Assembly (NCBI GenBank): GCA_963785725.1
Contig: CAWAWS010000002.1
Span: 1 to 64,000 of the forward strand
DNA length: 64,000 nucleotides
Direction of reading: 5' to 3'
Origin: an uncultured delta proteobacterium
GTDB lineage: Bacteria > Myxococcota_A > Polyangia > Palsa-1104
Part shown: in pieces, positions 1,394-24,888 of the stretch
Numbering within the stretch: the stretch's first letter is position 1
How the letters are laid out: each line of letters starts with the position of its first letter
Translations under genes and position numbers: made by a program
The notes under the pieces: generated by a model
What the model was told of the DNA's origin: nothing
Databases searched by the model: none
Seen by the model: only the letters and a program-made list of their open reading frames with translations

Positions 1394-1745
1394 ATGACGA
1401 CGAACGCCGAGGCGCCACGGCTCAAGGATCGAATCGACGAATTCCTCGCGGAGATCGCGGCGCACACACCGCCCGAGGTCGCTCGCACCTTGGCGGCGGA
1501 GCTCGACAAGCTCGCCAAGTCCGGTATCGTCGAGCAAAGCCTCCGCGTCGGCGCGCGCCCCCGACTTCACGCTTCCCGACGCGCACCAACAGCCGGTGCA
1601 GCTCGACAAGCTCCTCGCGCGCCGATCGGTCGTGCTCACCTTTTATCGCGGTGGCTGGTGCCCGTTCTGCAGCTTGCAGCTGCGCGCCTATCAGGAGATT
1701 GTGCCGACCTTGCGCGAGCTCGGCGCGGAGCTGGTGGCAACCGGT
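1394..1745 (+). pseudogene. AhpC/TSA peroxiredoxin-like protein, frameshifted and truncated
   Basis: MTTNAEAP...SLRVGAR, frameshift near 1557, then PDFTLPDAHQQPVQL...VVLTFYRGGWCPFCSLQLRAYQ...GAELVA. C-terminal half is missing. Confidence 0.8.
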
Positions 1746-1809
1746 TGAACGCGCAGCCCGGCTTTCTTCTTCTGCCTGAGCGATAGCCTGCAGACCGCTG
1801 ACGGTGCCC

Positions 1810-2001
1810 ACGACCCGTCTTCCTGCTGATGCCGAACTCGCGGCACGGGACGTCCTGCGCCAGCGCCTTCAGAACAAACTCTTTTCTCGGCTTCACGACT
1901 GACCTCTCGGCCCACGGCATCCCTTCGAGGGGAGCCGGCTGGGCGCCGAGGTGTCACCGAGGTCTTGGCGCGATTTCGTCACCTACGTCATGGCACCACA
2001 C
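1810..2001 (-). mobile_element. IS481-family remnant (element end plus transposase N-terminus)
   Basis: MPWAERSVVKPRKEFVLKALAQ..CREFGISRKTG matches IS481 N-termini (MPW...R.EFV...CR.FGISRKTG). Repeated GTCACC motifs and a TGT-starting end lie upstream. Confidence 0.7.
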
Positions 2002-21079: not shown

Positions 21080-21775
21080 TCACACCCCGGCGAACCACTC
21101 GTAGCCGCGGTCCTCCCAGTAGCCTTGCGTCCGCGTCGGTAGGAAGCTCACCTCGGTGATGTACTTGACCATCTTGTAGCCAAGCTTGACGGCGGAATAG
21201 AGGCGCAGGGGCGCGCCGTGGCCCGGCTGAAGCGGCTCGCCGTTCATGCCATAGGCGAGGATCGACTGCGGGTGGAGCGCGCTCTCGCGATCCCAGCAGG
21301 AGTAATAGCCCGAATCGAACGAGCGGAACTCGAGGTACGGCGCACGCCGATCGGCGCCGACGACCTCCGCCAGATCGCGCACCCGAACGCCGTGCCACGA
21401 AGCGACCGCCGACCAGCCCTCGACGCAGTGGTGCCGCACGCGCACGTCGGTGCGTGCCATTCGCTGCAGCGCTTCGAGATTGAACGATCCCGGCCGCGCC
21501 ACCATGCCCCCGACACGCAGCGCCCATCCCGGCGGCGCGAGCGGTACGGTCGGCGAGATGTAATAGGTGGGGAACCCGCCGGGCGGCGTATTCGCCGATT
21601 CCGGAAGCTCGCGCGCTCGGCGATGGCTGCTGAAGAGCCCGCGTTGAGCCGCATCGTTCCAACGCTCGGAGAGCCCGAGCAGACCCTGACGCGGACGGTC
21701 GCTGCTGCAGGCGGCGATCGAGGCAGCGGCACCGAAGATAAAAGTGCGTCGCGACACGATGGGAGCGCTACTCAC
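21080..21775 (-). CDS. Molybdopterin-dependent oxidoreductase, sulfite-oxidase/MsrP-like catalytic subunit
   Basis: Tat-like SRRTFI; HHCVEGWS with the Mo-ligand Cys; ILAYGMNGEPL...HGAPLRL; GYKMVKY; GYWEDRGYEW. Confidence 0.9.
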   Translation of the reverse strand: MSSAPIVSRRTFIFGAAASIAACSSDRPRQGLLGLSERWNDAAQRGLFSSHRRARELPESANTPPGGFPTYYISPTVPLAPPGWALRVGGMVARPGSFNLEALQRMARTDVRVRHHCVEGWSAVASWHGVRVRDLAEVVGADRRAPYLEFRSFDSGYYSCWDRESALHPQSILAYGMNGEPLQPGHGAPLRLYSAVKLGYKMVKYITEVSFLPTRTQGYWEDRGYEWFAGV

Positions 21776-22415
21776 GCCGGCCTCCGGTGATCATCTCGCT
21801 AATGCTGCGCGGATGAAGCGCGACCAACAGCACGTGGCCGACCGTGAAGAGCGCGAACGCCCCGAGCACCAGCAGGTGCACCGCTCGCGCGGCGTCATAT
21901 CCTCCAAAGGCCGCCGCCAGCCAGTGGAGCTGCACCGGCTTGTAGATGGCGAAGCCGGAGAGCACGATCATGATCGCGAGCAGGAACGCCGCGGTGTACG
22001 CGAGTCGCTGCAGCCCGTTGTAGAGGCCCTGCCTGGGCGCGGTCTGCCGGATCCGCAGATAGTACGCGAGGGTCTGTACTGCGTTGCCTGAGTCGCGCCG
22101 GGGCGAGAAATAGCGGCGCCGCCATTCGCCGCTCAGGGCGAGATAGATGCCATAGGCGAGGCCATTGAGCACGAACAGCCAAGCGAACGCGAAGTGCCAG
22201 GCGCGCCCACCCGCCAGCCAGCCCCCCAGCCGTAGCCAATCGGGAGGTGCGTCGTTCTGGAACGGGTACCAGCCGTAGGGCGCACCCCGGGGACCGAGAG
22301 ACGGAAACGCCGCGAGGATCTGCAAGCCACTGCCCGCCATGATGACCAGGCAAGGCACGTTCACCCAGTGCGTGATGCGCACCATCCACGGCTGCGGGCG
22401 TTTTGTTGGAGCCAT
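21768..22415 (-). CDS. Di-heme cytochrome b (Ni-hydrogenase/thiosulfate-reductase type) membrane partner
   Basis: RITHWVN, AWHFAFAW, YNGLQRLAY, VHL..GHV; four TM helices; GGAGG RBS; overlaps the Mo gene. Confidence 0.9.
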   Translation of the reverse strand: MAPTKRPQPWMVRITHWVNVPCLVIMAGSGLQILAAFPSLGPRGAPYGWYPFQNDAPPDWLRLGGWLAGGRAWHFAFAWLFVLNGLAYGIYLALSGEWRRRYFSPRRDSGNAVQTLAYYLRIRQTAPRQGLYNGLQRLAYTAAFLLAIMIVLSGFAIYKPVQLHWLAAAFGGYDAARAVHLLVLGAFALFTVGHVLLVALHPRSISEMITGGRRE

Positions 22416-22581
22416 CTGTCGCACCTCCGCCGGCCGACGCAGAGAATAAGCGCGACGTTGCTCGACGCCATCCTGTGAGCCCCGCAGCCATACATCCCGG
22501 GCTCCGCTAACGCTCTTCCCGCCTGCAGAGGCGATCGACCAGCGCGCGTCGCAGCGCGGTCGGATCAGCGACCGCCGTCTG

Positions 22582-23394
22582 TTACCGGAGCCTGAGTGCC
22601 TCCTCGAGCGCCTTGCCCTCCTTGCGCGCTTGCGCCCACGTGATCGGGACGACGCGAACCTCGCCCGAATGCTCGGCGTGCTGCAGATGCTTCAATGCTT
22701 CGAGAATCATGCGTCGCTGTAGCTCGCGGTGATGGGGCACGCCGAAGTGGTGACCCATCATGAACGGCGCGAACACGACACGCGGCGGCTTGGCCATCTC
22801 GGACACGTCACGTGCGACCGACATGCTGACGGTAGGAATGCCTCGGCGTTCAATGGCGCGCTGCACGAGCGCGATCGATTGATGACAGATGGGTCAAGCA
22901 GGGCACAGAAGGACGATGTCCGCGTGCTCGCCCAAGACCGCACCGGCGATCTGCTCGGCGAGGTCCAGCTCGACGCGTTCGGGGTCCATGTTGTAGCCGA
23001 TGAAGCTGAAGAAGTGCTCGGTGAGGCCGCCGATCACGCCCTCGGTGGCCAGCTCCTGCAGCCGCTCGATCGGGAAGATAACGTTGAGGTCCTCGTGCGC
23101 GCCGAACGTCGGATACTTGATCTGGTGAATCTCGAGGTCGGCTGGCCGCGCGGTCGACGGTACGCGCCGGAAGGTGTAGTCGCCGATCGGGTGCGCCGTA
23201 TCGAGCGGCAGCGAGCCGCGCGGCTGCACGCCGGCGGTGCTGACGAAGGCCAGGCGGCATTCGGCCAGCGGCTTGCGCATGGACGCGAGGGGGACGAAGT
23301 CGCGCTTCTCGATCATCGATCCCGGATAGCGGTCGTTGATCGTGTGCCATAGCTTGGAGCGCAGCTGCGCGTGATCGTCAGAGGTCGCCGTCAT
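22582..23394 (-). CDS. Selenoprotein of the glycine/sarcosine/betaine reductase B / D-proline reductase PrdB family (Sec at codon 167)
   Basis: ORFs 22894..23394 and 22582..22866 are one frame joined by TGA (22894-22896), reading LLCPA-U-PICHQSIALVQRAIERRGIPTV. Also VSTAG, GDYTFR, DLNVIFP..RL.EL...GVIG and PPR.VF.PF..G. Confidence 0.9.
22850..22882 (-). promoter_or_regulatory. Candidate bacterial SECIS hairpin
   Basis: +12 to +44 after UGA: UCAAU-CGAU-CGCGCU-[CGUGC]-AGCGCG-CC-AUUGA, with G at the second loop position followed by U. Confidence 0.7.
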
Positions 23395-23668
23395 GGATCC
23401 ACTCTCCCGAACGCTTGACCAAGTAGAAGTGCAGCTGAAAAAAGAGATGCGCCAGGGTCGCCGGATCGTGGCGCTCGACGGTGTCGAGGATGAAGCCGCG
23501 ATCGGTCGGCGGCACGTCGAGAAGAAGCTCGAGCGCCACCGTCCACGCCTTGTCGATCTCGCGCCGTCCCGCGTTCTCGTCGCCGTCGCCGAGGTGGAGG
23601 CGAACGAAGCGGATGAGCTTGTCGCGCTCGCCGGCGGCGAGCGCTTCCTTCAGGTATGCGACCGACAT
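23378..23668 (-). CDS. Hypothetical helical protein (96 aa) in the nitrilase-selenoprotein operon
   Basis: AGGAG RBS just after the nitrilase stop; 17-nt overlap with the selenoprotein start; natural amino-acid composition. Confidence 0.8.
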   Translation of the reverse strand: MSVAYLKEALAAGERDKLIRFVRLHLGDGDENAGRREIDKAWTVALELLLDVPPTDRGFILDTVERHDPATLAHLFFQLHFYLVKRSGEWIHDGDL

Positions 23669-23677
23669 GAAAGCTCC

Positions 23678-24607
23678 TCATTCATCCTCGAAGCGCGCCG
23701 CCCGACGCCGGCGGCGATCGACGTCGACGCGGAACACGTCGGGTCGGCCGTAATGACCGGTACAGTCGAAGTTCTGTCGCTCGCGCGCGACCGCGCCAAG
23801 GTCGAGGTCGGCGACGACGAGCGTGCGCTCGTGTGCCAGCGGAGGTACTAGCCACTGACCGTCCGGCCGCGCGATCGCCGTACCGCCATCGTGGAAGACA
23901 CCGTCAGCCGGTAGGCGATCGGCGAGCGGAAAACCTGCCGGGATATCACCGCGGTGGAGGGCCGACGACGCGGACAGCACGAAGACGCGTCCCTCGAGCG
24001 CGACGAAGCGCGTGATGTCGACCGTGTTGCGCACGGATCCCGGCCAGAGCGCGACGTGAATGTCGATTCCATCGGCGTAGAGCGCGTGTCGCGCCTGCGG
24101 CATCCAGTTCTCCCAGCAGTTGAGGACACCGACGCGCGCGTCGTCCACGGCGTGCGCCCGCAGGCCATGGCCGTCGCCTGGCGCCCAGACCAGGCGCTCC
24201 TCGTAGGTCGGCACGAGCTTGCGGTGGACGCCGACCACTCCCAGGCGCGGACTGATGAACAGCGCCGTGCAATAGAGCGAGCGGGAGCCCGGGGTACGCT
24301 CGACGACGCCGAGCACCACGAAGATCCCGTGGCGCGCTGCTTCGGCCGTGATGGCGGCGACCTCCGGCCCGTCGAGCTGAACGGCGGCCGCGACGTAGGC
24401 GGCGTAGGCCTCTTTTTGGCGCGGGTCGTCGAAGCGCGCGCCGTCGGTGAGGCTGAGCCAGAACGGGTAGCCGGGCAAGAATGCTTCACCGAACGCGACC
24501 AGCCGCGCCCCGGTCGCGGCGGCGCGCCCGATCCAAGCGACGACACGCGCCGCCGTCGCCTCGCGATCGAGGAAAACCGGGGCATCCTGTACGCAAGCGA
24601 CGCGCAT
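23678..24607 (-). CDS. Nitrilase (carbon-nitrogen hydrolase, class 1-like)
   Basis: Catalytic triad E (GEAFLPGYP), K (HRKLVPT), C (LNCWENWMP); C-terminal GHYGRPDVF. Confidence 0.93.
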   Translation of the reverse strand: MRVACVQDAPVFLDREATAARVVAWIGRAAATGARLVAFGEAFLPGYPFWLSLTDGARFDDPRQKEAYAAYVAAAVQLDGPEVAAITAEAARHGIFVVLGVVERTPGSRSLYCTALFISPRLGVVGVHRKLVPTYEERLVWAPGDGHGLRAHAVDDARVGVLNCWENWMPQARHALYADGIDIHVALWPGSVRNTVDITRFVALEGRVFVLSASSALHRGDIPAGFPLADRLPADGVFHDGGTAIARPDGQWLVPPLAHERTLVVADLDLGAVARERQNFDCTGHYGRPDVFRVDVDRRRRRAARFEDE

Positions 24608-24681: not shown

Positions 24682-24888
24682 TCAGTGCCTGCCACGACCG
24701 AGCTGACGTACCGCATCGAGGATGGCTCCGAGCTCGAGGCGCGTCGTATAATTGGGATCGACGAACGCGAGACGCACCATTCCGCCCCCCAAGGTGCGGG
24801 CAACCTCCGGCGGCACATGCGCGGCCATTTCCTTGAGGAATTCGTCGATTCGGTCCTGGAGATGTGGCGCCTCGGCGTTGGTCGTCAT
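24682..24888 (-). pseudogene. Internally deleted peroxiredoxin-like paralog
   Basis: N-terminus MTTNAEAPHLQDRIDEFL, close to the copy at 1394, joined directly to a C-terminal VRLAFVDPNYTTRLE..AIL. The CxxC core is absent. Confidence 0.75.

Follow-up and report, generated by a model that had tools for sequence, protein, structure and literature searches.

PrdB and the related GrdB, GrdF and GrdH proteins (PF07355) share a catalytic domain with a UxxC motif, in which U is a selenocysteine (Sec) encoded by an in-frame UGA with its selenocysteine insertion sequence (SECIS). The carbon which the selenolate of the GrdB/PrdB enzymes attacks is activated through a Schiff base with a pyruvoyl group, and the family members acting on betaine or fluoroacetate, which offer a good leaving group, are described as needing no pyruvoyl group (PMC10838667, in the part available). 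Counts of stand-alone PrdB-like selenoproteins in oxic metagenomes go back to 2008 or earlier, but no function was assigned to them. In the Global Ocean Sampling, such "proline reductase PrdB" UxxC proteins were abundant in oxic habitats (235 sequences, 38 samples, function not established), and the available part of that paper names neither a partner gene nor a nitrilase link nor a UxxU form (PMC2398784); further stand-alone members are catalogued in PMC5029168. The present work concerns a gene of this kind in a 64,000-nt stretch of contig CAWAWS010000002.1, hereafter the window, where it is tightly coupled to a small gene with a 96-amino-acid (aa) product and to a nitrilase gene. Although stand-alone PrdB-like selenoproteins were already known, three features appear to be new, namely the fixed partner, the link to a nitrilase and the UxxU form: none of them was found for this family in a literature search, nor were a nitrilase, a selenoprotein and glycine reductase found together. 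All the open reading frames (ORFs) of the cluster lie on the minus strand, those of main concern being the following:

24607-23678, minus strand: nitrilase ORF (309 aa, PF00795)
23668-23378, minus strand: small ORF with a 96-aa product, all-helical in its model, without a Pfam or NCBIfam match over cut-off
23394-22582, minus strand: PrdB-like selenoprotein ORF (270 aa with the TGA read as Sec; PF07355)
22896-22894, minus strand: in-frame UGA, predicted Sec167, motif U167-P-I-C170
22850-22878 (core stem-loop 22857-22873), minus strand: predicted SECIS hairpin, from silent-site conservation

The small gene and the selenoprotein gene as a fixed pair

The conserved unit consists of two genes, the small gene and the PrdB-like selenoprotein gene, and not of five. 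Five ORFs had been described in the initial annotation, and their strand and tight coupling were confirmed: the nitrilase is followed by a 9-bp gap, the 96-aa ORF, a 17-nt overlap, the selenoprotein ORF, a 166-bp gap and a cytochrome ORF, the G+C content at third codon positions being 0.82-0.85 across the five genes. The neighbourhood analysis started from the small protein, for which 507 relatives were found, and the locus set comprised the genome loci (20, of which 19 were full-length; L038, with a 20-aa match, was dropped from the counts), 80 of the 460 metagenome loci and the window. The selenoprotein gene stood directly behind the small gene in all 96 loci that extend 150 nt or more beyond the latter; it was seen in 2 of the 4 loci with less than 150 nt, the other 2 ending too early, and three further divergent carriers also have it in this position. 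The two genes overlap by 14-17 nt at start and stop in 17 of the 18 loci examined. Moreover, all 35 aligned small proteins are 96 aa long and have 25 invariant columns, which include H25, D28, E37, H74, H80, W90, H92 and D93, so the small ORF proved to be a real, fixed partner gene, as had been supposed. Conservation at its C-terminus may be due in part to the overlapping ribosome site and start codon of the selenoprotein gene. No small gene was present beside 15 PrdB-like genes which have the TGA but belong to other clades (34-39% identity), picked among the matches in the family of G002 (Pyrinomonadaceae), 111 further matches being left out.

The small protein of the window contains no Cys. 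Against Pfam and NCBIfam it gave only a sub-threshold HAAS match and none over the cut-off, against the PDB sequences no match of substance and in the Atlas no usable match, while a profile search of 1.84 billion representatives returned 91 proteins, of which the 19 examined were all apparent members or fragments. Its structure model (pLDDT 92.8) has five helices; Foldseek returned no related fold and the best VIA Z was 3.2, a lack of clear match to the model which does not show the fold to be new. Homology to PrdA, PrdC, part of PrdE or the CBO2463 protein was also considered and rejected, since sequence comparison gave no match. A natural fusion of the small protein with the selenoprotein (P0214) was not accepted either, being a single record with signs of a frameshift. 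In L215 and L216 a divergent 95-aa small protein is encoded, the module there being followed by DsbD-like and redoxin genes, with a HEAT-repeat cyclophilin upstream. The genome G004 (L132) has, besides an intact module, a decayed second one, made up of a nitrilase, a small gene interrupted by a stop and a selenoprotein fragment.

These comparisons bear on the possibility that the small protein stands in for GrdE/PrdA as a substrate-binding subunit without a pyruvoyl group, the nitrilase making a halo- or onium-acid whose alpha-carbon bond the selenoenzyme would then cleave, in the manner of fluoroacetate or betaine reductase. FarB/FarE and GrdH/GrdI offer a precedent, and the invariant residues of the small protein include His, Asp and Glu; FarB is moreover, like the window protein, a repurposed selenoprotein of the GrdB family, and its substrate has no need of a pyruvoyl group, as would probably be the case here. 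Nevertheless, FarB keeps a full GrdE-like partner, feeds GrdA/GrdC in anaerobes and is without the resolving Cys motif, whereas the module protein keeps the Cys or has a Sec in its place (PMC10838667, in the part available). In addition to the missing matches of the small protein to PrdA, PrdC, part of PrdE and CBO2463, no GrdA match was obtained in the host genome (a search without a positive control), and no transporter or catabolic gene is conserved among the module neighbours scanned, all of which makes such a catabolic role very unlikely.

With regard to the selenoprotein itself, its score is over the cut-off of PF07355 (32.5 against 22 bits), the GrdB/PrdB superfamily, and it is the only match to this family in the host genome. 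It differs from PrdB and GrdB in remaining below the cut-offs of TIGR04483 (PrdB; 133 against 300 bits) and TIGR01918 (glycine/sarcosine/betaine reductase B subunit; 49 against 65 bits), the latter being expected to have ~430 aa, in having a fixed partner of 96 aa and in a QLRPGLW..ERYPG-type N-terminal extension, which is missing from two paralogs; in a quick tree the module proteins form a clade of their own with 99% support. If the remaining subunits had escaped notice in an incomplete assembly, the protein could belong to a canonical Stickland reductase for D-proline or glycine, and the 88% completeness of the host genome and the matches to TIGR04483 and PF07355 would be compatible with this. 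However, in addition to the low TIGR04483 score, identity to the PrdB of an intact prd operon (L202) is only 30%, and PF09338 (PrdA/GrdE) was found neither in the host genome nor in the 19 other carrier genomes, also incomplete assemblies, while the same search gave scores over the cut-off in a Clostridia-type control, namely in 4 of the 61 genomes in the class around L038. Furthermore, tblastn with PrdA, PrdD, part of PrdE, PrdF and the CBO2463 protein of the L202 operon gave no match in the host genome, and PrdC gave one weak match of 27%; the set of PrdA proprotein, PrdC and proline racemase expected of a D-proline reductase was not found. The probability of this explanation is therefore negligible. 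A canonical prdA/grd partner set elsewhere in the genome was looked for and not found in this assembly, and the initial view of a stand-alone, repurposed selenoprotein was borne out.

On sequence grounds, the window protein is a genuine selenoprotein with a predicted Sec167. The TGA was retained in 81 of 81 main-clade alignments spanning the site, and its position corresponds in alignment to the Sec of the L202 PrdB and to a Cys in 4 sister-clade genes. The hairpin behind the UGA was not more stable than shuffled sequences (z -0.6, by itself without significance), but its silent sites hardly vary among 84 non-redundant genes (Ile174 is ATC in 56/56, Ala175 GCG in 75/75 and Gln178 CAG in 84/84, the Arg179 codon being restricted to CGC/CGT), against a background mean of 0.52 at 66 other conserved degenerate sites; since codons 174-179 are thus near-invariant, a SECIS is predicted downstream of the UGA. 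Incorporation of Sec167 is predicted from the conserved UGA, this SECIS-like hairpin and the genes selA, selB, selC (tRNA-Sec) and selD, each of which was over its cut-off in the host genome.

The motif at residue 167 takes two forms among the 99 full-length main-clade genes, UxxC in 64 and UxxU in 35, and past the second TGA the frame stays open with 65-73% identity. The UxxU form, found in both metagenome contigs and assembled genomes, needs 4 changes on the quick tree, 2 of them forced by well-supported branches. The table of a 2026 review gives UxxC with a single Sec for GrdB and PrdB and assigns UxxU to three further families (PMC13188914); UxxU in the PrdB-like family is absent from that table, its supplements lying outside the comparison, and is considered new to this extent. 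In the available part of the Global Ocean Sampling paper, UxxU is reported for a peroxiredoxin-like (Prx-like) family only (PMC2398784). This natural UxxC/UxxU pair allows the comparison of Se-S with Se-Se chemistry, and the UxxU members are a handle on the reading of two UGA codons, spaced by nine bases, through a single SECIS.

Distribution, nitrilase and redox neighbours

Hosts of the module are found in the Myxococcota, Acidobacteriota, Gemmatimonadota, Planctomycetota, Actinomycetota and Vulcanimicrobiota; with a record from Lysobacter, known at the protein level only, the phyla number seven. The small protein of Lysobacter korlensis, a cultured species, is 76% identical, which may make the module genetically testable. 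The module was present in 4 of 40 relatives of the window host, in none of 14 genomes of the same family, in none of the other 400 genomes sampled from the phylum and in 25 of 151 Pyrinomonadaceae genomes, and transposase genes lie near several module loci. Some of the genomes counted are unpublished (G016, with L034 and L120; G437, G452, G529, G547 and G562), and no conclusion rests on them alone.

The window nitrilase matches PF00795 (E 1e-39) and belongs to the true-nitrilase branch by its E41-K130-C164 triad and CWE motif. In the Nit1C cluster (TIGR04048), a conserved set of seven genes, a nitrilase is likewise accompanied by small genes of hypothetical proteins (PMC1199592). Nevertheless, the window nitrilase reaches 189 bits against the Nit6803 cut-off of 503 in TIGR04048, and the GNAT and AIRS-like genes of Nit1C are not conserved near the module; for nitrilase subfamilies 4-6, the available part of the same source reports no conserved cluster (PMC1199592). 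A neighbour being defined as a gene within 4 kb, a nitrilase adjoins the module in 43 of 128 loci and in 17 of the 38 with at least 5 kb of flank (long loci), against 0.2% of random own-genome windows, and may be upstream, downstream, divergent or convergent. In the Pyrinomonadaceae, 21 of 25 carriers and 20 of 126 non-carriers have a nitrilase match (Fisher p 7e-11, which is overstated, as kin are not independent), the nitrilase lying on the same contig, within ~3.5 kb by coordinates, in 12 of the 25; G452, G547 and G562 account for 3 of these 25, 3 of the 21 and 3 of the 12. The adjacent nitrilases fall into two clades, ~40% identical and separated by a 100% branch in a quick tree of their own, both placed within ~250 bp of the pair in many loci, and the window nitrilase groups with those of Actinomycetota. 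Because of these two clades, the link would seem to have formed at least twice, or to be old with deep divergence.

The nitrilase is therefore a frequent accessory of the module and not a core gene. The tie between nitrilase and selenoprotein proposed in the initial annotation is real, although order and orientation vary; of the three-gene co-conservation, the pair stood and the nitrilase did not, and a five-gene pathway had to be abandoned, since the cytochrome b and molybdenum (Mo) enzyme genes occur together in only 4 of the 38 long loci. It may be asked whether the nitrilase belongs to any shared pathway, or whether the genes merely gather in mobile stress islands, as the patchy spread, the transposases and the variable order would allow. 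The presence of two nitrilase clades so close to the pair and the co-occurrence in the Pyrinomonadaceae speak against such an explanation, which is judged quite unlikely. A selenonitrilase was rejected, the flagged stops lying at or past the C-terminal end of the nitrilase matches in the re-aligned loci.

The nearest solved relative of the nitrilase is the plant NIT4 (E 6e-55), the specificity positions of which are R95, L169, S224 and the R95-D317 lock (PMC6637149, in the part available). The Arg (R58, aligned with R95) and a Ser (aligned with S224) are kept; L169 is replaced by Glu and D317, the partner of R95, by Asn. The relationship to NIT4 and the two kept residues would agree with a cyanide/thiocyanate route, the idea of the initial annotation, in which the selenoprotein would reduce S-cyano or Se-cyano adducts and cyanide would be converted to beta-cyanoalanine, to be hydrolysed by the nitrilase, and the rhodanese and SufS-type genes found near 2 and 4 of the 128 loci, respectively, would suit it. 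However, not only do the two substitutions tell against this route, but the larger of the two clades of adjacent nitrilases is without the NIT4-type Arg, the most NIT4-like bacterial sequence of the set (L136) is not beside the module, and no cyanoalanine synthase or cyanase family was found among the scanned neighbours. It is thus held to be unlikely.

Three further ORFs flank the genes described above:

22415-21768, minus strand: cytochrome b561-type membrane protein ORF (PF01292), an occasional neighbour
21775-21080, minus strand: sulfite-oxidase-family molybdoenzyme, MsrP-like (PF00174), an occasional neighbour
24682-24888, minus strand: peroxiredoxin-like (AhpC/TSA) remnant, 68 aa, a probable pseudogene

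The co-oriented cytochrome b and Mo-enzyme ORFs downstream were confirmed. As in MsrPQ, a membrane cytochrome b precedes a sulfite-oxidase-family Mo enzyme, but the latter scores 88 bits against the cut-off of 207 for MsrP (NF003767) and the cytochrome is of the PF01292 type and not a recognised MsrQ, so the earlier assignment to an MsrPQ-like pair is not retained. MsrPQ responds to hypochlorite, and the window Mo enzyme has at its N-terminus what we take to be a twin-arginine-like motif. Within the neighbour distance, cytochrome b was found in 5 and an MsrP-like gene in 7 of the 128 loci, the 4 long loci with both showing ~35% identity.

Other redox genes are more frequent. Methionine sulfoxide reductase (Msr), Prx-like, thioredoxin-like (Trx-like) or DsbD genes adjoin the module in 43/128 loci and 18/38 long loci, against 1.9% of random own-genome windows, a contrast inflated by the choice of the queries from the same loci. 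Nitroreductase genes are found in 14 loci and DUF417 genes in 2. In nine loci an in-frame TGA lies in the redox motif of a neighbour, six of these genes being TlpA-like/TPR and three Prx-like. The wider neighbourhood points more to thiol and methionine redox repair than to a cyanide, thiocyanate or selenocyanate substrate. The six TlpA-like and TPR genes, with the TGA in a UxC motif, lie just downstream of the module in L041, L047, L049, L054, L058 and L059, that of L054 having a second in-frame TGA four codons earlier. In L023, L100 and L208 the module is inserted into a cluster for Fe-S assembly, where the genes on its two sides are of the SufS and SufU types.

The initial annotation had reported no adjacent Stickland or thioredoxin genes. 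This was upheld for prdA, grdE and grdA, and has to be amended by the peroxiredoxin-like remnant, co-oriented and 74 bp upstream of the nitrilase, whose middle part, including the redox motif, is deleted. Its N-terminal 41 aa are 73% identical to a second, frameshifted copy from position 1394 of the window onward, and its C-terminal 32 aa are 59% identical to the product of a PF00578 gene which is intact and precedes the module in L054; a plasmid search with the remnant gave one weak match. The frameshifted copy (1394-1900, plus strand; PF00578 match at 1551-1739) is 82% identical to the remnant over 163 nt.

A protein-repair reductase, keeping catalytic cysteines reduced and having the nitrilase as one client, would agree with the redox nature of UxxC/UxxU, with the dependence of the nitrilase on Cys164 and with a sister clade which pairs with a one-Sec peroxiredoxin. 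Against this, 4 of 25 and 3 of 19 carrier genomes have the module but gave no match to a nitrilase, and the nitrilase is present without the module in 20 of 126 genomes, and such a function is regarded as distinctly unlikely.

Possible function of the pair

The explanation preferred here, with a probability of roughly 45%, is that the pair forms a two-subunit cytoplasmic selenol reductase dealing with oxidant or electrophile damage, the nitrilase being an accessory which would clear nitrile by-products. In its favour are the fixed pair, the TGA-bearing redox neighbours, the sister clade behind a TxxU peroxiredoxin, the two nitrilase clades beside the module and the lack of PF09338 matches in the carrier genomes, and it is the genes nearby that suggest the clean-up of damage. 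As PrdA/GrdE is lacking, the selenoprotein would most likely act on an already activated bond, and no pyruvoyl subunit would therefore be needed. The Sec167 selenolate would attack this pre-activated bond, for example N-Cl in a chloramine, S-CN, an oxidised thiol or a carbon bearing a halogen; Cys170 or Sec170 would then resolve the adduct as a Se-S or Se-Se bond, releasing the reduced product, and thioredoxin-type neighbours would recharge the selenoprotein, with the small protein as a dedicated subunit shaping the substrate site. In this context, the repeated nitrilase link narrows the possible substrate, and the fixed partner protein is a second handle on function.

N-chloramines decay to nitriles (PMC12164213, in the part available) and RclC is a DUF417 protein (PMC12096828, in the part available), and for these reasons the nitrilase could be tied to the Msr genes through reactive-halogen stress, which is tentatively favoured as the most economical single link between them, its own probability being low. 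Several points weigh against the reductase and its link to halogen stress. RclC-type (DUF417) genes are present in only 2/128 loci, and Msr and Prx genes mark oxidative stress in general and not halogen stress specifically, their excess over background being inflated as already stated. In 11 of the 38 long loci there is neither a nitrilase nor an Msr/Prx/Trx/DsbD-type gene within reach; no reductant gene is fixed in the module, and many of the loci are kin. Finally, the correlated divergence of the small protein and the selenoprotein (r 0.63) is expected from co-inheritance alone. A broader proposal, regarded as unlikely, would see in the module a new aerobic class of two-subunit selenoenzymes, having the PrdB fold with the pyruvoyl partner swapped for a small helical subunit of new fold and using a natural diselenide (UxxU gained at least twice), which together with the nitrilase would form an undescribed pathway by which bacteria of soils and deserts defend themselves from reactive chlorine or cyano-stress.

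Other PrdB-like clades and minor observations

Stand-alone PrdB-like genes are near-universal in one soil acidobacterial family, the Pyrinomonadaceae, where genes of some kind were found in 150 of 151 genomes (G437, G529 and G562 included) and form at least 4 clades, none of them over the PrdB cut-off. The sister clade with the best scores follows a TxxU peroxiredoxin gene in 27 of its 30 loci, G437 and G562 contributing to the 30. Like the module protein, its members are stand-alone, with UxxC and a redox-gene partner; they differ in clade, in the partner being a peroxiredoxin and in having no 96-aa gene. These loci (L172-L201) form a two-selenoprotein operon, with the TxxU peroxiredoxin (TGA in 27/30) followed by a UxxC or CxxC PrdB-like gene and then by an ORF which is presumably phosphofructokinase-like.

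Moreover, a PrdB-like paralog in which Sec is replaced by Ser (SxxC) occurs behind a DUF4149 gene in L023 (9217-10005) and L208 (12121-12909), and stop-free PrdB-like matches of similar score are present in many of the 151 Pyrinomonadaceae genomes. A further stand-alone UxxC clade is represented by L219-L232, several of whose neighbours we assume to be 2-oxoacid dehydrogenase E1-like or pyridine-nucleotide disulfide oxidoreductase-like ORFs.

Within the window, a promoter scan of the locus found none, and a single terminator-like site was detected at 22470-22453, a count below chance expectation; a look for RNA runs returned none. Beside the cluster, between 9262 and 20865, there are a cysteine-rich repeat protein (1362 aa), a Ser/Thr-kinase-like ORF (1247 aa) and a beta-propeller-like lipoprotein (827 aa), which are apparently unrelated to it.

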